From: a virus
Lineage: Duplodnaviria; Caudoviricetes
IMG/VR virus record: IMGVR_UViG_3300001866_000025
Span: 1 to 38,089 of that record
Strand: one strand, 5' to 3'
DNA length: 38,089 nt
The position numbers and the translations under genes are program-made. How positions within the stretch are numbered: the stretch's first letter is position 1; every line of letters starts with the position of its first letter. The notes below the pieces were generated by a model. That model had not been told where the DNA came from. It searched no databases and saw only the letters and a list, made by a program, of their open reading frames with translations. Shown here one piece after another: positions 3,869 through 37,791 of this stretch.

Positions 3869-3897
3869 TTGACTTATTATAACGCTTATGATATACT
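3869..3897 (+). promoter_or_regulatory. strong sigma70 promoter
   Basis: TTGACT-17-TATACT with extended TG; spacer resembles that of the promoter at 37530. Confidence 0.8.
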
Positions 3898-4060: not shown

Positions 4061-5317
4061 ATGAAAGTTCATAATACTAACAACTTGCCAACGATACCGA
4101 TAGCCGACTTGCTCCCTACACAGGGCGATCTAAAAGACCTATCGGAAGTAAACTATAAAAAACTAAAGAGCAACATAGAACGCCGAGGCTTTATAGACCC
4201 TGTATCAGTTTGGGAAGATGATAAAGGCTTGAAGCATTTATTAAACGGCCATCAAAGACAAAGAGTCCTAATGCAAGAGGGCTGGAACGAACCGATACCT
4301 TATTTCAACATACCAGCCAAAAACTTACAAGAAGCCGCCGCAATAGTATTAGAGCTTACTTCACAGTACGGAACTATCACCCAAGAGGGGTTAGACGAGA
4401 TGATAGCCAAGTACGAGTTGAATGAAGCCGAAGTCTATGAAGCTACGAGTTTTGATGCGCTTACTAAATATGGCGACACCGAAGAAGTAGAAGTCGAAGA
4501 AGATGAAGCACCTGAAGTATCTAGCGAACCTGCTGTTAGTAAGTTAGGCGAGATTTATCAGTTAGGCAGACACAGAGTAATGTGCGGCGATAGCACCGAT
4601 GCTGGTAACGTAGCACTCTTAATGAATGGAGTTAAGGCAGATATGGTGTTTACTGACCCACCATATGGGATGGACTTTACTGGAAGCGTAAATGGTGATG
4701 GAACACCATCCGCTAATTCAAAACTTAAACAGATTGGCAATGAGACAGGAACTGAATTGGATAAAATAGAGTTTATACAAAAATGGCTACCAAGAGTTCT
4801 AGAGTTGACGAATAATGGTTGGTATATTTGTTACTCTAGACATAATTTACGTAATTTACGTAATTTACTAATAGCATTTGACGAACTTAAAACACCAATA
4901 AGAAATATTATCATATGGAACAAAAACAGACAAAACATTAGTAATAGTGATTACAAGTCAAAATATGAATTAATATTATATGGGTGGAAAGACAGAAAGT
5001 TCTATGGGGCAAAAGGCGATAATGATGTATGGGAAATCAACAAAGAAAACAAGAATGAATTACATCCTACACAAAAACCCATTAGCTTATTTGCTAAAGC
5101 AATAAACAATAGCAGTCAAAGCGGTGAGCTTGTGGCAGATTTATTTATGGGTAGCGGTGGGACTTTGATTGCCTGCGAGCAAACAAATCGCATATGTTAT
5201 GGTATGGAACTAGATCCTAAATACACAGACGTAATACGAAAAAGATATTGGAAATTTATAAACGATGGTAACGAAGATGGCTGGGAATTAGGAACGCCAG
5301 AAATAGCGTTGGGATAG
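4061..5317 (+). CDS. ParB-like N-terminal domain fused to a beta-class N6A/N4C DNA methyltransferase
   Basis: LNGHQR ParB/Srx motif; LGRHRVMCGDST, FTDPPY, HPTQKP, DLFMGSG, GMELDPKY; TGTTATACT promoter at 4022-4030. Confidence 0.92.
   Translation: MKVHNTNNLPTIPIADLLPTQGDLKDLSEVNYKKLKSNIERRGFIDPVSVWEDDKGLKHLLNGHQRQRVLMQEGWNEPIPYFNIPAKNLQEAAAIVLELTSQYGTITQEGLDEMIAKYELNEAEVYEATSFDALTKYGDTEEVEVEEDEAPEVSSEPAVSKLGEIYQLGRHRVMCGDSTDAGNVALLMNGVKADMVFTDPPYGMDFTGSVNGDGTPSANSKLKQIGNETGTELDKIEFIQKWLPRVLELTNNGWYICYSRHNLRNLRNLLIAFDELKTPIRNIIIWNKNRQNISNSDYKSKYELILYGWKDRKFYGAKGDNDVWEINKENKNELHPTQKPISLFAKAINNSSQSGELVADLFMGSGGTLIACEQTNRICYGMELDPKYTDVIRKRYWKFINDGNEDGWELGTPEIALG
4843..4868 (+). repeat. in-frame 9-bp tandem repeat (TAATTTACG, about 3 copies)
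   Basis: encodes NLR-NLR-NLL inside the methyltransferase. Confidence 0.85.
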
Positions 5318-7257: not shown

Positions 7258-7529
7258 ACGAAAAAATAATACTCCTAGATAATTCACGTTTTACGACATT
7301 AATAGTTGACCCAACAATCGTAAAAGAGGAGGTCAAAGTACATTGTCTTTATTGTGGCCATTGGCTGATGTCTATGAATAGGAAATTTGCGGTAGCGGCC
7401 GACGGTGCAGAGCCTTTTGGCGGCGGTGAAATACCATTAAACGTGTTCAGAGTTACCAGAGTATGTGGCGTATGCAACCCTAAACATTACTATATTATCT
7501 ATTTCAATGGCGAGGGTTCGGGATTGTGA
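7254..7529 (+). CDS. zinc-ribbon protein, Com-like (candidate RNA-binding regulator)
   Basis: VHCLYCGHWLM...TRVCGVCN, two CxxC knuckles; ATGA overlap with terL. Confidence 0.6.
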   Translation: MNEKIILLDNSRFTTLIVDPTIVKEEVKVHCLYCGHWLMSMNRKFAVAADGAEPFGGGEIPLNVFRVTRVCGVCNPKHYYIIYFNGEGSGL

Positions 7530-7582: not shown

Positions 7583-9604
7583 ATGCACAATGATACTTAC
7601 ACTCAGTACAAAGAAGACCCAAAAGTAGACATGGTTGACGGCCAAGAAGGTGTGGCCGAATCATACGATAATTTCGCACTTGATTTACCTGATAGCGAAA
7701 TAACCGACATTTTAGATAAGCGCATAAATGACAGCCGAGCATTTTGGAATGACCAAGCAGGATTTAATCTAAAAAGTAGGCGAGAGCGAAACAATAGATT
7801 TGTATTGGGCGATCATTGGTATGACTCAGGCTCTTTACAAGGCGGTATACCTTACGTGCAGAATGAAATATTTACAGCCGAGCAAGTCATATCGTCATAC
7901 GTCACATCAAGGTTACCAGAGGTTGAAGTATATCCTGGTCAAGATACTCCTGAATCACGCCGACTAGCACAAAATATATCCACCTTATTAAAGGCTCATT
8001 CCGAAGAACACAACTTACAAGGTATTCTTACCAATATTGTGCTATCAATGCTAAACGATTATGTCGGATTGATTGAATTAGAATGGGATAAAGAATACGG
8101 CAAACTTGGCGATATTAGAATCAACCAGATTGCACCTCGAAACTTCATAGCTGATAAACGAGCCAAGCAAGGGTCAAACCCTGGTTTTAGCTCATTCAAC
8201 ATACAGAATACGGCCGAGGAGTTAATCGCTAAGTTCCCAAAGAAAAAAGAGGATATAACAAATAAAGTCGGTGGTAAACTACAATCTGTCATTACTTGGC
8301 GCAAAGTTTACGTTACTACTTATATAAATTCTAAGCCTACCGAAGCTTTAGTGTGCTACTTTGAAGATATTGTACTCGCTAAAAACAAACTACCGCATTG
8401 GATTTATGACGAGGAAACAGAGGAAGTAACTAACTATCTAAGTGAACCTACTAAACCTGTTATACCTTTTAACTATATAAATGACGGCTTACACTGGATT
8501 GATCGCTATGGGCCGATTGACCAAGTAATACCATTACAACTTATGATTGACAAAATAGGCCGACAAATCCAAAAGGGCATAGCCCATTCATCGCCTGTAT
8601 TAGTATTTAATAAAAAAGCTTTGCCTAAACCAGCCGCCGACCAAGTAAAAGGCGAACCTTGGGAAAAGATACTCGTAGACGCACAAGACGTTAACACGGC
8701 CTATGGAGTCATACAAGCCAATCAAATACCGGCTTTTGTCGTAAATGAGATTACAAGACTTGCAGGATCGCTACACGAGATATTCGGCACACCACCACAA
8801 CTTAGAGGTCAATCAGGCCAACAGACTGCTACGCAAGACTTAATGGCTCGCAATGAAGCCTATAATCGCCAGGATTTACTTGTTAGGGCAATAGATCGTT
8901 CATTGGATAAATACTTCAATTATTTACTACAAATGATAAAAGTCTACTATACCAAAGACCACTTTATATCGGCACTTGGCGAAGATGGCCGCTATGATTT
9001 CGTAACATTAAATAGGAATGATATTGAAGACGGTATAAAAGTCAGAGTCAAAGCCGGTTCAACCTTGCCAATGGACAAAGGCAGACTTGAACAAGTAGCC
9101 CTAAGCCTAGCAAAGATGGGTAAAATATCACTACTATCTCTATACGAGTTCCTAGACGTTCCAAACCCAGGCAAACACGTTGAGCGTGTCCTTAAAGAGC
9201 AAATCGACCCAGTAACTACGATCGAGGATATACGCAACGACAATCAGGACGCTAATGCCGTAGAAGATTATGAAATGATTGAGGCCGGTCAAGAAGCAAT
9301 GCCACGAGATGATGTAGACTTAGGACATATTAAAACCCACCACAAACAACTGCTATCCAATGACTTCAAAATGTGGCCTGTGGAAAACCAAGAGATGTTT
9401 AAGGCTCATATCCAATTAGAGTTAGACAAAGTGAAAGCTCTCAATAACATTACCGAGGAAAGCCTATACCCACCTGAACCAGAAGAACCAAATCCAGGTA
9501 TAAATGCCAGTGTAAATGTTCCACCGGCTATGCAACAACCAGCTCCATCAAATATTCCACCAATCGCTCCGACCACTCCGCAGTTGCCATCTCCAATGAT
9601 GTGA
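7583..9604 (+). CDS. portal protein (P22-like size)
   Basis: 673 aa directly after TerL and before scaffold/capsid; mostly helical with Pro-rich tail; assignment rests mainly on synteny. Confidence 0.8.
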   Translation: MHNDTYTQYKEDPKVDMVDGQEGVAESYDNFALDLPDSEITDILDKRINDSRAFWNDQAGFNLKSRRERNNRFVLGDHWYDSGSLQGGIPYVQNEIFTAEQVISSYVTSRLPEVEVYPGQDTPESRRLAQNISTLLKAHSEEHNLQGILTNIVLSMLNDYVGLIELEWDKEYGKLGDIRINQIAPRNFIADKRAKQGSNPGFSSFNIQNTAEELIAKFPKKKEDITNKVGGKLQSVITWRKVYVTTYINSKPTEALVCYFEDIVLAKNKLPHWIYDEETEEVTNYLSEPTKPVIPFNYINDGLHWIDRYGPIDQVIPLQLMIDKIGRQIQKGIAHSSPVLVFNKKALPKPAADQVKGEPWEKILVDAQDVNTAYGVIQANQIPAFVVNEITRLAGSLHEIFGTPPQLRGQSGQQTATQDLMARNEAYNRQDLLVRAIDRSLDKYFNYLLQMIKVYYTKDHFISALGEDGRYDFVTLNRNDIEDGIKVRVKAGSTLPMDKGRLEQVALSLAKMGKISLLSLYEFLDVPNPGKHVERVLKEQIDPVTTIEDIRNDNQDANAVEDYEMIEAGQEAMPRDDVDLGHIKTHHKQLLSNDFKMWPVENQEMFKAHIQLELDKVKALNNITEESLYPPEPEEPNPGINASVNVPPAMQQPAPSNIPPIAPTTPQLPSPMM

Positions 9605-21086: not shown

Positions 21087-23170
21087 TGGCATATCAACTG
21101 ACAGAACAAGATAAACTACTCGCAAGGCAAAATGCTATGCAACGATTTCAGGCTCAGACACCGACAACTAAAAAAACTGGCGGTAATTTTTTAACAAGTT
21201 TGTTACCTACCGCAGGTGGTATTTTAGGCGGAATTGGTGGAACATTCTTTGGCCCAGGTCTAGGTACGGCTGCCGGTGGTGCAGCCGGTGCTGGTGCTGG
21301 TAAATTTTTACAGAATCTATTGGAAGGTAAAAGCGATGCTGGTGAGGGCGTACTAGGTGAAGCCGCATTAGGCACATTAGGAGGCATAGGGAAAGGCCTG
21401 AGTGCTATAAAAGGCGCTAGAACTGCATTAAAAACAGGACAAGGATTAGGCAAAGCAGCACAGGCTTTGAGATATGGCGCACCGGCAGCAAGTGCTATAA
21501 GTACCAGTGCAAATGTAGCAAAAACTGGTATTATATCCAAAGCTGGTAAGAGCCTTGAGAAGTTAGGTGGAAAAACGTTGGGAACGCAGAGTTTGATGAC
21601 TGGGGCGCAGGCAAGAGCCAAAGGTGTAAACCCAATGCAAGCTTTTTCTAATATTAACAAGCGAACTGGGCTGACTAATCTAGATGATATGGCTGAGGTA
21701 TCAAGAGGTTTAACTGGTAAAGAAGGATCAATGCTTGATATGCTGACTAGGGAGGCCGTTGGCAGCACTAGCGGTGTTAAAATACCAAATATGTATAAGA
21801 CAGCCGAATCAGCATTGGATGATTATGGCTCATTATTAACTAAAGGCCAACGAGATGCAGTTTTATATCAAGCTAATAGAGCTGGAATCACAATGTATGG
21901 GGGATCTAAGGGTTCATTGTCTACATTGGCTAATTCGCAAGAAGCACTTAACCAAGCTAATGCGTTTAGAGAAAATTCCAGATTATTAACAAGTGGGTTC
22001 AATGCCACAGCCAAAGACAAACAATTAGCTAAGGTATATAACACATTAGCTTCCTCTATTGAAACACCATTATATAACTCACCAGGAGTATCACAGAGTA
22101 TTCCTAGTTTGATTAAGTCCGGTTCAGATGACTTGTTATTTAAAGCTCAAGATTTAAGGGCTGCTGGTAATGTTGCCCAAGCTAAAGCTTATGAAAAAGT
22201 GGCCCAAGAATTACGAGGCGTTAAAGACATAAAAGAATTGAGAACATTTAAAAAAGACTTTGTTGATATAAGCAAGATTGATGAAGCGACAGCACAAGCT
22301 GAAGGCGCTAGAGGATTGGGCAATGGTGCGTTATCTGGAAGATTCAACCCTGTACAATTATTGTCGAGTGCTATTGCTCCTAAAGCTGGTGGCACTATGG
22401 TTGGTGCTGGTCAGGCATTACAACGAGGCATAAAGTTGCCTCAAATGTCAGGTGCAGCAAAAATAGCCGGTACTCAATTGGCTGGTCGAGCATTGACCGG
22501 CACTTTGCCAACAAGTCAACCAACTACGACTGGGATAGAACCGACTGGAGCTACTAGCATCGGCGGATATGGTACTACTGGATTAACTGGTTATGGCACG
22601 ACTGGAGCAAGTGCATTAGGTGGTGCAACTACTCCAAGTTCTATTTACACTAAAGAAGCCGTTGCTCAAGATATTCAGAATGACCTTGCTGCAACTGGCG
22701 GTGCTAATATGGATAAATACATTACTCTGTATAATTTCTTAAATCCTGAGGCAACAGAAGCAAAATCACAATACGGCAGACCATCATCTCAACAATATGC
22801 CTTAGCTACGTCTGGTTCATCGGCTCTACAATCATTGGCGAGCCAATTATCACAAGATAAAGGTGTGCTTACCAGAACTGCCATACCTGGCCAGAATCTA
22901 CCAATAGTCGGTGGTCTTATAAGTAACATAGCTGGAACTGGTGAATATAAGGCTACGGCTCAGAATGTGCTTGATGCACTAGCTAGGGCTAGAACTGGTG
23001 CGGCTATGACAAAACAAGAAGAGGCATTTTATGAAAGAATGTTGCCTAGGGCTGGTGATAGTGAACAGACTGTACAAGCTAAAATAGCTACTCTACAAGA
23101 AGCTTTTGCACCATTTTTGAATTATACCGGAACAGGTGCGACTGATTTAACCAGTCAATATGCTTATTAG
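21086..23170 (+). CDS. large internal virion/DNA ejection protein (probable)
   Basis: glycine-zipper segments (GGILGGIGG...AAGGAAGAGAG), A/G-rich; C-terminal RARTGAAMTKQE...MLPRAGD. Confidence 0.7.
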   Translation: MAYQLTEQDKLLARQNAMQRFQAQTPTTKKTGGNFLTSLLPTAGGILGGIGGTFFGPGLGTAAGGAAGAGAGKFLQNLLEGKSDAGEGVLGEAALGTLGGIGKGLSAIKGARTALKTGQGLGKAAQALRYGAPAASAISTSANVAKTGIISKAGKSLEKLGGKTLGTQSLMTGAQARAKGVNPMQAFSNINKRTGLTNLDDMAEVSRGLTGKEGSMLDMLTREAVGSTSGVKIPNMYKTAESALDDYGSLLTKGQRDAVLYQANRAGITMYGGSKGSLSTLANSQEALNQANAFRENSRLLTSGFNATAKDKQLAKVYNTLASSIETPLYNSPGVSQSIPSLIKSGSDDLLFKAQDLRAAGNVAQAKAYEKVAQELRGVKDIKELRTFKKDFVDISKIDEATAQAEGARGLGNGALSGRFNPVQLLSSAIAPKAGGTMVGAGQALQRGIKLPQMSGAAKIAGTQLAGRALTGTLPTSQPTTTGIEPTGATSIGGYGTTGLTGYGTTGASALGGATTPSSIYTKEAVAQDIQNDLAATGGANMDKYITLYNFLNPEATEAKSQYGRPSSQQYALATSGSSALQSLASQLSQDKGVLTRTAIPGQNLPIVGGLISNIAGTGEYKATAQNVLDALARARTGAAMTKQEEAFYERMLPRAGDSEQTVQAKIATLQEAFAPFLNYTGTGATDLTSQYAY

Positions 23171-23421
23171 CTTTTAACAACTAACTTAGCGACTTTTGCG
23201 CCTTGTTCCATAATCTCGTCAAAGTTAAGTGATATATCTTTGTTAGATATTTCGTGGCGATCGGCTATGTTTTGGACAATACGAGAGTATATAAAATCTT
23301 GGGCGTGTCTGGCTTGCTCGACTAATGCAAGGAGCGAGGCAACCTCGATTATTTCCTCTGATGTTAAAACGTAGTATTGAGTGTCGGATTTCTTTTTTAG
23401 TATGTCGCTTTTTTTACTCAC
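23167..23421 (-). CDS. hypothetical protein (chaperonin operon)
   Basis: overlapping-gene operon on the minus strand. Confidence 0.7.
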   Translation of the reverse strand: MSKKSDILKKKSDTQYYVLTSEEIIEVASLLALVEQARHAQDFIYSRIVQNIADRHEISNKDISLNFDEIMEQGAKVAKLVVKS

Positions 23422-23647
23422 CTGTATCTCCTTTTATGCCAAAATAATCGTTGGCTTCTTTTTTACCGTAGGCTTCAATATACTCTTGGTTTGGTTTGCC
23501 ATTCTTATATGGCTGGACAATATCACGAGCGTACTTTTCACGCATACTGTTTCGGACAAATTCCCTATGTAGTGGTTGCTCGCTAACTTTTTCGGGTTTA
23601 CCGTCTATTAATTTTCCGTTAACGACTTGCCCGATTATTTTCCTCAC
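23414..23647 (-). CDS. hypothetical protein (chaperonin operon)
   Basis: GTGA overlap with the upstream ORF. Confidence 0.7.
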   Translation of the reverse strand: MRKIIGQVVNGKLIDGKPEKVSEQPLHREFVRNSMREKYARDIVQPYKNGKPNQEYIEAYGKKEANDYFGIKGDTGE

Positions 23648-23925
23648 TGTATTTTAACTCCGGTATCTTCATCATCAACTGGACTGATAGTATTAGTTTC
23701 TATGTCAGGCTCGGATTCTTTACTAGGTACTACACCGCCGAATGGATTATAGTTGGGGTTTTTAGCAATTTCTTGCCTTAGATTGATTGATTCTTCAACT
23801 AATGGTGAGAAATCACCTACATCAAATGGTGTCCTATTTATAGTGTTGTCTTGTCTAAGACTTAGGAACTCGTTTATCTCTTTTGGCGTTCCTTGATATT
23901 CTTCATCGTTGATAAAAACTCTCAT
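23644..23925 (-). CDS. hypothetical protein (chaperonin operon)
   Basis: AAGGAGG SD and ATGA overlap with groEL. Confidence 0.7.
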   Translation of the reverse strand: MRVFINDEEYQGTPKEINEFLSLRQDNTINRTPFDVGDFSPLVEESINLRQEIAKNPNYNPFGGVVPSKESEPDIETNTISPVDDEDTGVKIQ

Positions 23926-25508
23926 CGTCTTCCCTCCTTTATCATGTCTAACATTGTTTCATTGGCTTCATCTGAAAACACCATTACGACCGTTGTGGTG
24001 ATTAATTTACTTGCAACTGAACAAGCGTTTCTGACAACTTCTTTTATTACTAGAGCAGGGTCAATGATGCCAGATTCTCTTAAATCTATCGGTTCGTCGG
24101 TCATATTCTTTAAATCGTAGCCAAAACCGATTGGCTTTTCCAGAACTTTACCTAACTTATACTCGGCTTTTTCACCGGCGTTATTCATTAACTCTATGAA
24201 TAATTGTTGCAAGGTGGAATCAAACGGAGTGCCAGTTACTCTAGCAAGTGTTGTACCACCGCCAGGAACGATGCCATCACGTCTAGCGGCTTGTAAGGCG
24301 CATACAGCGTCATCAACCCTAAGCCTTAGTTCTTCTCGGTCGATGTCAGTTGGAGCGCCTACTTTTACTATGCCTACACGCCCTTTGAGACGAGCTATGC
24401 GGTCTTTTATGGCCATAGTAGTTACTTGATGAGTTTCGGATTCTAACTGGCTTTCTAGCTCATCTAAACGGCGTTTAATCTCTTTTTGATCGCCAGCGCC
24501 GTCTAGAATAGTGGTACTTAATTCCTCGACGATTACTCGTTTGGCCGCACCAAGAAAATCAAGGTTAAAGTCATCGGCTGAATTACCATGATTATAAACT
24601 TTAGCACCAGTCAAAGCCGCCAAATCATCTAATACGATAGACTTCATACCAGCGGTGGCCGGAATACCAGCAACGGTAGCGATTATCTTGCCTGATGTGC
24701 GTTGCATAACTAGGAACTCTAAAGCGTCTTGCATAACTTCGCCTAGTATCAGAATCTCTTTGTAGCCATTACCTACAATCTGGTTAAGGATTGAAGCCAT
24801 TTCCCTGTCTTGGGATATTACTTTATCAGTTAAGAATATAGGTACGTTTTCAAAGTCGGAACTTAAAGTACCGCCGTCTTTAACTAATCTGACATCAGTA
24901 AAACCTTTTCGCATATAGAATCCATCAATAGCCTCGGCATAAACGCCAAGCCCTGTGTGTTCTTCGACGGTTACACCACCCTCTGAACCGACTTCTTTTA
25001 CGGTATCAGCCAACAGTTGAGCGATTGCGTCATCACCACAAGATACTTTGGCAACATCTAAAAGACCGTCATCAGTTAACGGTTCTTTTATGGAGTCGAT
25101 ATATTCAATGGCTTTTTCAGCCGTATCGTCTATCATCTTAGCAACTTCCATCTGGTTATGGCCTGATGAGATCAATTTGCGACCGGCTGCGTATAAATGA
25201 TAAGTCAAGATAGCGACGGCGGTCGTTCCATCGCCTACTGTTGCGTTGTTCTTTTTAGAAGCCTGCAATACGGCTTTGGCGGCTATATTCTCGGCTCTGT
25301 CAGATAACGATACTTTTTCAAGGTTAGTTACGCCATCTCTTGAAATCTTAGAAGCTCCAACAGGCCAGTTATTCTCATACATGACATTACCAGCTTTCGG
25401 GCCATAGGCTGCACGAGCTACTTCATACATCACTTCAACACCAGCTGAAATCTTTTCTCTAGCATCATCACCGATTAGTATTTTTTTAGGGAATATATCC
25501 GGTTTCAC
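23922..25508 (-). CDS. groEL: GroEL-like chaperonin (Cpn60)
   Basis: YGPKAGNV, ISRDGVT, VGDGTTA, GVTVEE, RIARLKG, RVDDAVCA, GIVPGGG, GIIDPALV. Confidence 0.95.
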   Translation of the reverse strand: MKPDIFPKKILIGDDAREKISAGVEVMYEVARAAYGPKAGNVMYENNWPVGASKISRDGVTNLEKVSLSDRAENIAAKAVLQASKKNNATVGDGTTAVAILTYHLYAAGRKLISSGHNQMEVAKMIDDTAEKAIEYIDSIKEPLTDDGLLDVAKVSCGDDAIAQLLADTVKEVGSEGGVTVEEHTGLGVYAEAIDGFYMRKGFTDVRLVKDGGTLSSDFENVPIFLTDKVISQDREMASILNQIVGNGYKEILILGEVMQDALEFLVMQRTSGKIIATVAGIPATAGMKSIVLDDLAALTGAKVYNHGNSADDFNLDFLGAAKRVIVEELSTTILDGAGDQKEIKRRLDELESQLESETHQVTTMAIKDRIARLKGRVGIVKVGAPTDIDREELRLRVDDAVCALQAARRDGIVPGGGTTLARVTGTPFDSTLQQLFIELMNNAGEKAEYKLGKVLEKPIGFGYDLKNMTDEPIDLRESGIIDPALVIKEVVRNACSVASKLITTTVVMVFSDEANETMLDMIKEGRR

Positions 25509-25807
25509 TCGTAGCTCCTTAATTTATCCAATGAGATTATAACTATGTCTTTTTTCAAATCATTATCGTAAATCAAACAATCGGCTTCGGCATATTTAGC
25601 CCAACTTACTCTTTTACCGATTAACGAACCGTAAGTAGTACCATTATCGTCAAAGGCTTTTTCTTCATCTTGTTTTGTTAGTTTTGTTAGTATGCCAGTC
25701 TGAGGTAAATCAAATCTATCATCACCCTTAAAATCTACGTTGCTCATTTGTGTCTTATCAATAATAGCCAAACAGTAGCCTGGCATTGGAGTTTTATTAC
25801 TTTCCAT
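25505..25807 (-). CDS. groES: GroES-like co-chaperonin (divergent)
   Basis: 100 aa directly upstream of groEL; PMPGYCL, PQTGIL, GKRVSWAKYA parallel the GroES pattern. Confidence 0.7.
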   Translation of the reverse strand: MESNKTPMPGYCLAIIDKTQMSNVDFKGDDRFDLPQTGILTKLTKQDEEKAFDDNGTTYGSLIGKRVSWAKYAEADCLIYDNDLKKDIVIISLDKLRSYE

Positions 25808-32277: not shown

Positions 32278-32997
32278 CTATATTTTTATAACTCCTTTAA
32301 CTTTAATTGATGATTGACGTTTACCCCACGCTAGTAACTCGCTTAATTTTGATTGTAAGGATACAAAGTCAGATACTCTAGGTGCAAAGTTATCCGATTG
32401 CGAAAGAGCAACACCCCTTAATAATTGCATTAGTTTATCTTTACCGTGTTTTTTAAGTAAGTTATTACAAGCATACCTATTTTTTTGGATATTACTTTGT
32501 ATTTCATATCCAACTACCTCATTCCATTCAAGGAATAAATCATTTATTTCTTTTTTACTATTATCTTTATTTACATCTATATTTATATTATTATCTTTAT
32601 CTTTATTATTATGAATAGTATTATTATTGTATTCTACTATTAAACTACTATTAAAATAATCAAGTGTTTCTTTTGGGACTTCTTCATATTCACGAGTCAA
32701 TGCTTGTTCTGTAAATCTACCCTTTTTAGGTAAAACATAAGCCGAACCTATTAGTTTAATATAACTTTTATCAAAAGATACTAAACCTTTTTCCGCTAAT
32801 TGTTTTTTACATATTTCAAGTTGATCGCTTGATAATCCACTACGAGCCGATAATATACGGTTACTGACTTTATAAATGTCCGATACACCTCGTTCCGGTG
32901 CTGACATAAGTAAAAGATATAGTAATTTGGTGTCGATATTGAGTTCAAAGAAATCGTCATCGTCCCATAAATTTGTTTTTAGGATAGCTGTTTTCAT
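32278..32997 (-). CDS. replication initiator (lambda O/DnaD-like, probable)
   Basis: LWDDDDFFEL...KLLYLLLM N-terminal HTH-like domain, low-complexity NNKDKDNN linker, helical C-domain. Confidence 0.7.
   Translation of the reverse strand: MKTAILKTNLWDDDDFFELNIDTKLLYLLLMSAPERGVSDIYKVSNRILSARSGLSSDQLEICKKQLAEKGLVSFDKSYIKLIGSAYVLPKKGRFTEQALTREYEEVPKETLDYFNSSLIVEYNNNTIHNNKDKDNNINIDVNKDNSKKEINDLFLEWNEVVGYEIQSNIQKNRYACNNLLKKHGKDKLMQLLRGVALSQSDNFAPRVSDFVSLQSKLSELLAWGKRQSSIKVKGVIKI
32545..32660. other. candidate replication origin inside the initiator gene
   Basis: very AT-rich with repeated TATTATCTTTAT/TCTTTAT units in the linker-coding region, as in lambdoid origins. Confidence 0.45.
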
Positions 32998-33160: not shown

Positions 33161-33195
33161 ATAGCCATAATCACGTTGTGGATTTCCTGTGCATA

Positions 33196-33238
33196 AAATA
33201 AACACCGGCCAAGTTTGAGGGTAACTTATAGGCCGGTG
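33196..33238 (-). terminator. GC-rich hairpin, probable minus-strand terminator
   Basis: caccggcc...ggccggtg followed by tttattt on the minus strand. Confidence 0.6.
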
Positions 33239-33368
33239 CTTGGGTATAATTTTGTTGTCAAATCATTACCACATTTTGTAAGGATCATATCATTTCATTT
33301 ATTAGTTCATACCTAATCGAGTTTGATAATATTTTGATTTAAGCATAAGTATCTAGCAAATGCAATAT

Positions 33369-33442
33369 AAAACAGACCTGCTCCATAGAAAGGATTGACG
33401 TGGTAAGGGTGGGCTTCACCAAGACAATTAACAGGCCTGTTT
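33369..33442 (-). ncRNA. candidate trans-acting antisense sRNA
   Basis: own promoter TTGGAT-17-TATAAT; closing stem AACAGGCCUG/CAGGUCUGUU; loop CGUCAAUCCUUUCUAUGGA complementary to three early leaders. Confidence 0.65.
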
Positions 33443-33447
33443 GTTCT

Positions 33448-33488
33448 ATTATATTATAGTTGCAATTTATATCCAAAATTGATACAAT
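33448..33488. promoter_or_regulatory. overlapping divergent promoters (sRNA leftward, recombinase operon rightward)
   Basis: minus: TTGGAT (33476-33471)-17-TATAAT (33453-33448); plus: TTGCAA (33460-33465)-17-TACAAT (33483-33488) with extended TG. Confidence 0.7.
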
Positions 33489-33520
33489 TAAGACATAATA
33501 ATCACATAGAAAGGATTAAA

Positions 33521-34135
33521 ATGGTACAAAAAAGTAAAGAAATAGAAAAATTAAAGTTGCAACTTGACATTAAGCAAGTTACTAGAACAACCTCACTTTT
33601 GAATGAAAACCAGATTCAAAAGATTTGGAACTCAACGCCGGAACGATATAAATATTCACGCCCTGCAAAAGGTGGCGGCAACTGGACTTATATTAAGAGT
33701 TCATATGTTCGTAAAGTCCTAGATTCAGTCTTTGGCTTTAACTGGTCATTTGAAATTGAGACCTCATTAAAAGAGGCATTTGAAGTTGCTTCAATAACTG
33801 GCACTTGTGTAGTTAAAGGCGTATTGACTTGCCGAGTAAAATCTGATGGACAATGGGTTGACCTCAAGAAAGTTCAATTTGGCCGTTCAGATGTCAAAAT
33901 GAAACGAGACAAACCAGATATGCCACTAGATTTTGGTAACGATATGAAAGCAGCAACATCAGACGCACTTAAAAAATGTGCAAGTTTATTTGGGATCGGA
34001 GCAGATGTATATGAGCAAGGCGAATTCCAAGAAATTGAACTAATCGGCTCACAAGAAAACTCTGATCGGGCAAAACTAACAGCTGATAGAGTTAAAAAAC
34101 TAAGTAAAGAATTGAAAGTTGAGGAAGTAAAATGA
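33521..34135 (+). CDS. Rad52/Sak-like single-strand annealing recombinase (start revised from 33479)
   Basis: RPAKGGGNWTYI...LDSVFGFNWSFEI...GNDMKAATSDALKKCASLFGIG; GAAAGGA SD. Confidence 0.88.
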   Translation: MVQKSKEIEKLKLQLDIKQVTRTTSLLNENQIQKIWNSTPERYKYSRPAKGGGNWTYIKSSYVRKVLDSVFGFNWSFEIETSLKEAFEVASITGTCVVKGVLTCRVKSDGQWVDLKKVQFGRSDVKMKRDKPDMPLDFGNDMKAATSDALKKCASLFGIGADVYEQGEFQEIELIGSQENSDRAKLTADRVKKLSKELKVEEVK

Positions 34136-37052: not shown

Positions 37053-37533
37053 ACAATTAAATCAGCCGGACAGTATGAAATCAGCAAGTTGCCCGAAATG
37101 CGGTTGCAAACGATTATTATACAAGTCCGGTTGTTTAATTTGTACAGACTGCAATCATACCATTGGTAGGACGTTTAACAAGTATGGGGCTAAACGAACC
37201 GAGTTCAATGGCAAAATATTTGATTCCAAGTTTGAGGCTAATGTCGCACAAGATTTACATACTAGAAAATTGGCTGGTGACATTAAAGACTACGATACTC
37301 AATTCCGATTAGACGTGAATATCTATAACTCAAAAAATGAGATAGTCTGCACCAAGCGGCATAAAGTTGATTTCAGGATTTTACATAATGACGGATCGTA
37401 CGAACTTTTAGAGGCAAAAGGAGTCATTACCGCTGATTACCAGTGGAGACGAGATATTGTTGTAGGTATATGGCTATCTGAGCATAAAGATTATATTTAC
37501 ACTGTTATAAAAAACATAAGCAGAAAGTATTGA
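37018..37533 (+). CDS. DUF1064-like PD-(D/E)XK endonuclease with N-terminal zinc ribbon (start uncertain)
   Basis: NKYGAKRTEFNGKIFDSKFEA...VDF...LEAKG; CPKC...CTDC. Confidence 0.8.
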   Translation: MCLKGYLVVNHRQLNQPDSMKSASCPKCGCKRLLYKSGCLICTDCNHTIGRTFNKYGAKRTEFNGKIFDSKFEANVAQDLHTRKLAGDIKDYDTQFRLDVNIYNSKNEIVCTKRHKVDFRILHNDGSYELLEAKGVITADYQWRRDIVVGIWLSEHKDYIYTVIKNISRKY

Positions 37534-37558
37534 CTTATTATATCGTGTATGCTAAACT
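37530..37558 (+). promoter_or_regulatory. sigma70 promoter
   Basis: TTGACT-17-TAAACT with extended TG. Confidence 0.75.
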
Positions 37559-37565
37559 GAAGCTA

Positions 37566-37776
37566 TCAGTCCATAGAAAGATTGACGCAGCGAGCGATAA
37601 GAATAGTCCAGCCGAATGACTACCGAGTGAATAAGGCAACTCGCAACAAAAACATTAACAACTTGATTACCTACAAGAGACCAACCAACCGAGTCGGACG
37701 TGCAATCCGTTCCACGGTGTAGGACTGCGAGCCTACATCAAATCGCGTCAAGGTGGTTTCTCGCAGGTAATCAAGA
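37566..37776 (+). ncRNA. candidate structured leader RNA (~210 nt)
   Basis: several stems including an 11-bp perfect helix 37662-37672/37765-37775 that encloses two hairpins. Confidence 0.6.
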
Positions 37777-37791
37777 GAAAAGGAGACAGCA

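Follow-up and report, generated by a model that had tools for sequence, protein, structure and literature searches.

Phages use RNA in several ways to control early transcription or translation. The CI RNA of phage P4 is cut from the transcript that it controls and causes termination, the Sar RNA of P22 is fully cis-antisense to a single gene, and c4 is processed, by a route involving RNase P, from a precursor that carries its targets. In P1 and P7, c4 is described as a phage-encoded, structured RNA that acts in trans by pairing near the ribosome-binding site, with a specificity that varies among related phages, and that controls the antirepressor of a temperate phage (PMC12197685). As described in PMC4147584, small RNA (sRNA) genes lie divergent from their target genes in the type I toxin-antitoxin pairs tisB-istR1, shoB-ohsC and zor-orz as well as dinQ-agrB, and IstR-1 has a 21 nt complementary stretch in the 5′ leader of its target. 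In cluster K mycobacteriophages an extended Shine-Dalgarno (SD) sequence, SAS, is repeated before non-structural genes, with one odd copy that has no gene; the authors leave open whether its partner is an RNA or a protein and describe no RNA gene (PMC3203893).

The locus studied here lies on the minus strand of the window, by which we mean the whole 38,089-nt stretch of phage DNA that was analysed. Like c4, the candidate sRNA would be phage-encoded, structured and trans-acting, with predicted pairing over the SD at two of its targets and a seed core modelled as unpaired. Unlike c4, it does not match the Rfam covariance model, and rather than an antirepressor it matches the first genes of two to three separate early operons in phages in which no integrase was found; no antirepressor family was recognised among the window ORFs scanned, and what follows the targets is a Rad52-like gene, an ORF of 89 aa with no family and, at the third, a non-coding leader. 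The start of its stem ~6 nt past a -10 box suggests a primary transcript from its own promoter, in contrast to the processed c4. With P4 CI and P22 Sar it would share RNA-based control of early genes, and it differs from both in not overlapping its targets, its gene being divergent, tandem or distal. As in the divergent type I systems, the sRNA gene is divergent from its target in the window, and this layout recurs in 12 further adjacent cases whose exact match is at least 9 nt; the pairing, however, is 9-14 nt (18 with a bulge), lies over the SD and involves several targets, and the adjacent target encodes a 204-aa Rad52-like protein, not a small hydrophobic toxin. Unlike the SAS case, the odd copy here belongs to a promoter-stem-terminator unit, and its changes go together with those of the leaders. 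The family would fit the general class of trans-acting, SD-blocking sRNAs, to judge from the co-variation of seed and targets. Promoter spacing and stem are conserved in its members, for which a discrete structured transcript from its own promoter is predicted. We regard multi-target, trans-acting anti-SD sRNAs in phages that probably infect CPR bacteria as a real and well-supported candidate for a new family. Almost nothing is known of gene control in phages of Saccharibacteria or other CPR bacteria, and in the literature covered, mostly openly available papers, we found no report of a multi-target anti-SD sRNA in such phages.

The phage and its probable host

The 38-kb record belongs to a tailed phage encoding a terminase, a P22-like portal, a capsid protein, GroEL, several DNA methylases and HNH nucleases. 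Among named phages, the one closest to it in capsid (44%) and portal (33%) is the TM7 phage DolZOral124_53_65, itself equipped with a chaperonin gene; the host is therefore probably a Saccharibacteria-type CPR bacterium. Loss of the anti-SD occurs mainly in some Parcubacteria, according to PMC9297842. The sequencing runs that hold half or nearly half of the window sequence are groundwater metagenomes, and two of them may be its source. A GTDB scan returned one 2.5-kb contig, by which the host is not settled; neither protein searches nor cluster look-ups yielded host names, and no tRNA or tmRNA was found in the window. Within the structural genes, the stretch 23167-25807 (minus strand) has a GroEL gene accompanied by an ORF of GroES size and by three small ORFs on the opposite strand, an arrangement that the TM7 phage shares.

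About 1.2 kb of the genome is absent between the end and the start of the window. A 40.2-kb contig of identical sequence shows the gap. The missing part (L030, 10570-11759) has ORFs that are small or repetitive, and includes a lysozyme-like-looking fragment and a pentapeptide-repeat ORF. No integrase was found among the window ORFs scanned, and neither PF00589 nor PF07508 was found in five complete relatives (0/5); the ORFs of the missing 1.2 kb were listed and one of them was scanned. Partition genes were not recognised in the window.

A candidate small RNA gene and its target leaders

The candidate sRNA gene and the features discussed below are listed in Table 1.

Table 1. Positions of the features at the candidate sRNA locus, its putative targets and neighbouring genes (window coordinates unless a relative is named)
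Feature	Position	Strand	Remarks
Candidate small RNA, ~75-78 nt	33365-33442	minus	predicted, with closing stem P1, inner stem P2, a seed in a bulge and a short U-run
Seed, 19-nt segment	33382-33400	minus	complementary to three early leaders; central anti-SD part predicted unpaired
Closing stem P1, 5′ arm	33432-33442	minus	begins ~6 nt past the -10 box
Closing stem P1, 3′ arm	33369-33380	minus	one G-U pair; runs into the U-run
sRNA promoter, sigma-70-like, predicted	33448-33476	minus	promoter scan; -10 box ends at 33448
Divergent early promoter, predicted	33460-33488	plus	overlaps the sRNA promoter
Target 1, in the leader of the Rad52-like gene (SD and spacer)	33505-33517	plus	13/13 match; before ATG 33521
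Rad52/Rad22-family ssDNA annealing protein, 204 aa	33521-34135	plus	Pfam PF04098, E 8e-12; heads the recombination operon
Promoter-like early site before target 2	2281-2309	plus	promoter scan
Target 2, SD of ORF 2339-2608	2322-2333	plus	12/12 match; before ATG 2339
Promoter-like early site before target 3	37530-37558	plus	kept in 4 aligned relatives
Target 3, in a small 5′ hairpin (its loop and 3′ side)	37570-37587	plus	18 nt with one bulge; long non-coding leader, no proper SD
Structured RNA domain, separate from target 3	37654-37783	plus	same transcript; just before ORF 37792
Copies of the structured domain	L001 7157-7282; L300 9318-9432; L324 7715-7855; L021 10629-10747; L359 14249-14365		in relatives
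DnaD-like replication gene	32278-32997	minus	leftward operon
70-aa ORF, possible winged-helix	31417-31629	minus	leftward operon; atlas score 0.88, MarR-family chain E 0.02

The minus strand of 33365-33442 has a predicted folding energy of -25.0 kcal/mol (z -3.89, 0/200 shuffles as good), versus -17.6 kcal/mol for the plus strand (z -1.04, 38/200 shuffles as good), in agreement with an earlier sequence-only reading of this DNA, which had held that the stem favours the minus strand. The predicted fold has a closing stem of 11-13 bp (core pairing 33442-33432 with 33380-33370), an inner stem and a 3′ bulge that forms the anti-SD core; opening the seed would cost 0-2.2 kcal/mol for the core and 7.4 kcal/mol for the whole 19-nt segment. 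The one irregularity in the stem core is a G-U pair on the minus strand and an A-C mismatch on the plus strand, an argument for the minus strand that is good for this one stem and weak across the family, in which the mismatch bias is weak and the folds of the two strands are only modestly separated. The proposed minus-strand promoter does lead into the stem, as predicted by the scan. Because promoter-like sites are frequent here (36 found versus 25.8 +/- 4.8 by chance, in an AT-rich region), this site proves little by itself. The terminator scan of the window called no canonical terminator at the sRNA 3′ end, which would lie near 33365. Farther downstream, at 33202-33239 on the minus strand, is another hairpin with a U-rich tail that could stop read-through before the replication-gene promoters. 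A search of the window and 20 related loci against Rfam, including c4, gave 0 hits at the gathering score and only unrelated sub-threshold hits with E up to 10. One run guessed to be RNA covers part of the Rad52-like gene at <90% identity and bears neither way on expression.

A 9-nt core of the seed complement occurs exactly four times in the 38,089 nt, always on the plus strand, at 2324, 33384, 33505 and 37572; order-2 Markov copies of the window contained it 0.31 times on average and at least three times in 3/300 copies, a post hoc count for a core that itself contains the SD. The copies, coordinates and match lengths of the sequence-only reading were all confirmed, and two of the three matches cover an SD as it had claimed, namely those of ATG 33521 and ATG 2339. 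Each target lies directly behind one of the plus-strand promoter-like sites in Table 1. The second target precedes an ORF of 89 aa with no family assignment and a weak Zn-ribbon lead, and the third lies in a non-coding leader of ~220 nt. The two distant leaders match the hairpin copy over 12 and 18 bases, and the adjacent leader over 10, and 9 plus 3; in the window, therefore, the hairpin copy is more than a decayed version of its neighbour.

The three leaders had been expected to be the top matches of the seed, and among the 65 called gene leaders in the window they ranked 1-3 (37582, 33521 and 2339, the frame called at 37582 beginning within target 3 and probably not being a gene). Genome-wide the expectation held in part. 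With opening costs included, 33504 and 37569 ranked 2-3, after the locus of the sRNA itself, while target 2 (2322) ranked 16th, behind coding-region matches of the GC-rich apical loop; the target context in this ranking took in untranscribed DNA, so that opening costs are overstated. Co-folding of whole molecules, which cannot hold P1 closed while the bulge pairs, gave -5.3, -2.4 and -6.2 kcal/mol for the targets and placed the Rad52 leader 9th of 274. We also observed a common spacer motif in the early promoter-like sites at 2281-2309, 3869-3897 and 37530-37558 (all plus strand). Some relatives, for example G007 and the TM7 phage, repeat near-identical promoter-leader cassettes, which could be protein operators.

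Related elements and joint change of seed and leaders

Relatives with a Rad52-like gene often carry a promoter-hairpin-seed unit upstream of the first early gene. Its sequence differs among them and its build is common: a -10 box, a closing stem, an inner stem, a bulged anti-SD seed and a U-run or terminator. MAFFT was unreliable for aligning the sRNAs (43% identity), and therefore seeds and leaders were swapped among loci instead of counting pairs. The 51 loci comprised 32 with a promoter-leader and 19 without, and 31 leaders were compared all against all, leaving out L033 and L015 (near-duplicates), the own seed of L012, and L040 (too short). An exact match of at least 9 nt in the leader's own upstream region was present for 13/31 leaders versus 5.6% of swapped pairs, the other 18/31 having no adjacent match. 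By duplex energy the own upstream region ranked first for 9 leaders, compared with 3 in the sense-strand control, and the mean leader duplex was -17.1 kcal/mol versus -14.2 +/- 0.5 kcal/mol when swapped (0 of 100,000 permutations).

The hairpin and its promoter are also conserved. P1 pairs best with its own partner in 11/15 members, and in 10/15 it is preceded at 4-14 nt by a -10 box, versus 1/15 on the opposite strand; these 15 members were taken from the seed repeat and chosen by eye with hairpins visible, so these stem tests are not fully blind. In 23 folded members the RNA strand was the more stable in 18, and z fell below -2 in 15 versus 11 on the other strand. The element was present in 14 of the 19 genomes screened and not found in G007, G008, G009, G010 and G013. 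In those 14, promoter-proximal genes accounted for 20/42 of the top-3 hits versus 78/871 of genes overall, and the best distant target ranked first for its own seed in 10/14 genomes, or 8/11 when G006, G012 and the TM7 phage, whose elements were found through distant targets, are set aside. Leader-to-leader likeness within a genome may by itself give part of this distant matching. The prediction that seed and targets co-vary in relatives was thus borne out for both adjacent and distant leaders, and with the stem and the -10 spacing these comparisons support a minus-strand sRNA that would pair in trans with several early leaders.

Placement of the gene is less constant. It is divergent in most members, tandem in G011, where the seed is therefore inverted relative to its target, and distal in G006, G012 and the TM7 phage. 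The overlap of the two promoters, which the sequence-only reading had stressed, is present in the window, L001 and L032; the spacing is wider in L002, L003 and L007, and the overlap is not a conserved feature.

Closely related contigs give a finer view. A contig from run X4 has 22 differences from the window over 33187-33700, and among the 20 listed none lies within 33295-33458. A 247-nt contig from run X5 (depth 3, error possible) carries A->G at the position matching 33515 in seed copy and target alike, with the end mismatch at 33518 repaired and one U-G pair left; the X5 seed variant was seen again in a second X5 contig and in X7. Transitions among seed/target mismatches were G-U-compatible versus incompatible in 6 versus 3 cases inside the match (3 versus 0 under strict scoring) and 5 versus 5 at its edges, an asymmetry that is not decisive.

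Wider searches returned little. Among 113 generic back-to-back promoter loci there was no enrichment of seed repeats over controls, bar one member of the clade, and an exact search for the 17-nt seed in viral contigs gave two matches, both in unrelated coding sequence. A two-SD pattern picked out 92 stretches, including six distinct members clear by eye (L218, L220, L225, L243, L274 and L291); the others looked like chance. In L001, at ~4640-4800 on the minus strand, a second promoter-to-terminator unit lies behind the first. It too has an anti-SD segment, and the loop of its terminator is similar to the apical loop in the RNAs of the window and L039.

A structured domain in the leader of target 3

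The leader of target 3 also contains a multi-stem, non-coding domain that ends just before an SD. It was found in six genomes, and 22/32 of its pairs are changed on both sides, counted on a structure derived from the same six sequences; it had no Rfam hit. ORF 37792, which follows it, encodes 71 aa with a hydrophobic stretch and begins 200 nt behind target 3. The domain may act in antitermination or attenuation, or it may be an RNA that is processed. It also served to pick leaders by a feature other than the seed: the 5′ end of these leaders fits its own seed best in 4/5, in one of them narrowly, and the miss is L021, for which the test window was truncated. A sequence pattern for the domain gave 0 real matches among 119 loci, and a covariance model run across 67 sources returned the six training sequences only.

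Proposed role and alternative explanations

Taken together, complementarity, predicted fold, promoter-like site and conserved build, with seed and leaders changing jointly in relatives, suggest, with a probability that we put at roughly 60%, that a hairpin RNA from the minus strand of 33365-33442 pairs with the three early leaders and lowers early expression as a group, in a delayed shut-off role. Host RNA polymerase would transcribe the sRNA from phage entry on. The unpaired anti-SD core would begin the pairing, after which the inner stem would unzip. Ribosomes would be blocked at 2339 and 33521 by pairing over the SD, and at the very 5′ end of the leader starting at 37565 the sRNA might alter leader fold, stability or decay. 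The likely role is negative feedback on strong early promoters during infection, which we favour over upkeep of an integrated prophage because no integrase was found. The sequence-only reading had likened the locus to a cI/cro switch and to phage immunity, and this framing is not supported: neither the window nor the five complete relatives yielded an integrase, overlapping divergent promoters are not conserved, and a possible winged-helix gene is present. Its remark that no protein repressor was recognised is uncertain, given that ORF and the ~1.2 kb of genome outside the window; in view of the weak winged-helix lead, protein control may exist beside the sRNA.

The same RNA and the same pairing could instead keep a non-integrating, carrier or plasmid-like phage quiet and block superinfecting phages that share its leaders, as c4 does for P1 and P7. 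In its full form, immunity in CPR phages would be by RNA only: one RNA of 60-80 nt would replace a CI-type protein, silence the first leaders of all early operons and hold a non-integrating carrier state, with the structured leader hit at its 5′ hairpin and the fast-changing seed setting the immunity groups. Seed and leaders do differ even among close relatives (L001, L032, L039 and run X5), as expected of immunity groups; c4 underlies P1/P7 heteroimmunity (PMC12197685), and a CI-like HTH_3 domain is absent in 4/5 complete relatives, HTH_3 being present in 1/5. Compensatory drift alone, however, could yield the same seed-leader variation, neither an integrase nor, in the window, a partition gene was recognised, and the leftward replication-initiator operon, with promoter-like sites of its own at 33161 and 33079, is outside the top seed targets. 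We therefore hold carrier-state immunity, in the general and in the RNA-only form, to be unlikely, and favour delayed shut-off of early genes. Still less probable is that the four copies are same-strand binding sites of a phage protein, as DNA operator or SAS-like RNA element, with an incidental hairpin. That all four window copies are on the plus strand, three of them just behind promoters, would fit such sites, as would the weak G-U bias and the 70-aa possible winged-helix protein (atlas score 0.88, MarR-family E 0.02). Against this, the fourth copy always lies within a stem that starts 6-7 nt past an opposite -10 box and is inverted relative to the target in G011, the matches at 37570 and in L324 contain a one-base bulge, and in the window the distant leaders resemble the hairpin copy more than they resemble the adjacent leader.

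Other readings change the direction or the object of the pairing. The hairpin might be an attenuator opening a leftward transcript, with the early leaders as the trigger RNAs that open it. P1 does end in a U-run, target pairing extends to the P1 edge, and the same strand has a replication-initiator gene downstream; yet in many members P1 is followed by a terminator hairpin of its own standing, the downstream genes carry their own promoter-like sites and downstream content varies among the phages, which makes this account very improbable. An equally poor prospect is that host mRNAs are the main targets, the seed mimicking the 16S rRNA 3′ tail and broadly lowering host translation: most members do have an anti-SD-like hexamer as their unpaired core, but the seed flanks follow the phage's own leaders, and the seeds of L002, L003, L007, L010 and L041 lie over the spacer or start codon to a greater extent than over the SD. 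That the source copy is merely the SD of a plus-strand mini-ORF, suggested in the window by a GTG-started frame of 19 codons after that copy, we rejected as scarcely credible, the start codon being found in only 7/20 members and the frames running from 2 to 48 codons with no common sequence.

If delayed shut-off by the sRNA is correct, a phage would repress several separate early operons by one small RNA and no protein, and other phages' repeated SD motifs that lack an explanation, the SAS repeats among them, would gain a suggested partner. The compact, modular design of promoter, stem, bulged seed and terminator comes with natural cognate and non-cognate pairs, which make it testable in reporter or cell-free systems, without host culture.

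Two further stretches were noticed in the relatives. In L207 (TM7 phage), at ~7900-8200 on the minus strand, an unannotated non-coding stretch follows a promoter and has a tRNA- or tmRNA-like 3′ end. In L336 (G006), at ~7430-7510 on the plus strand, a long perfect hairpin is antisense to where the gene at 7488 starts.
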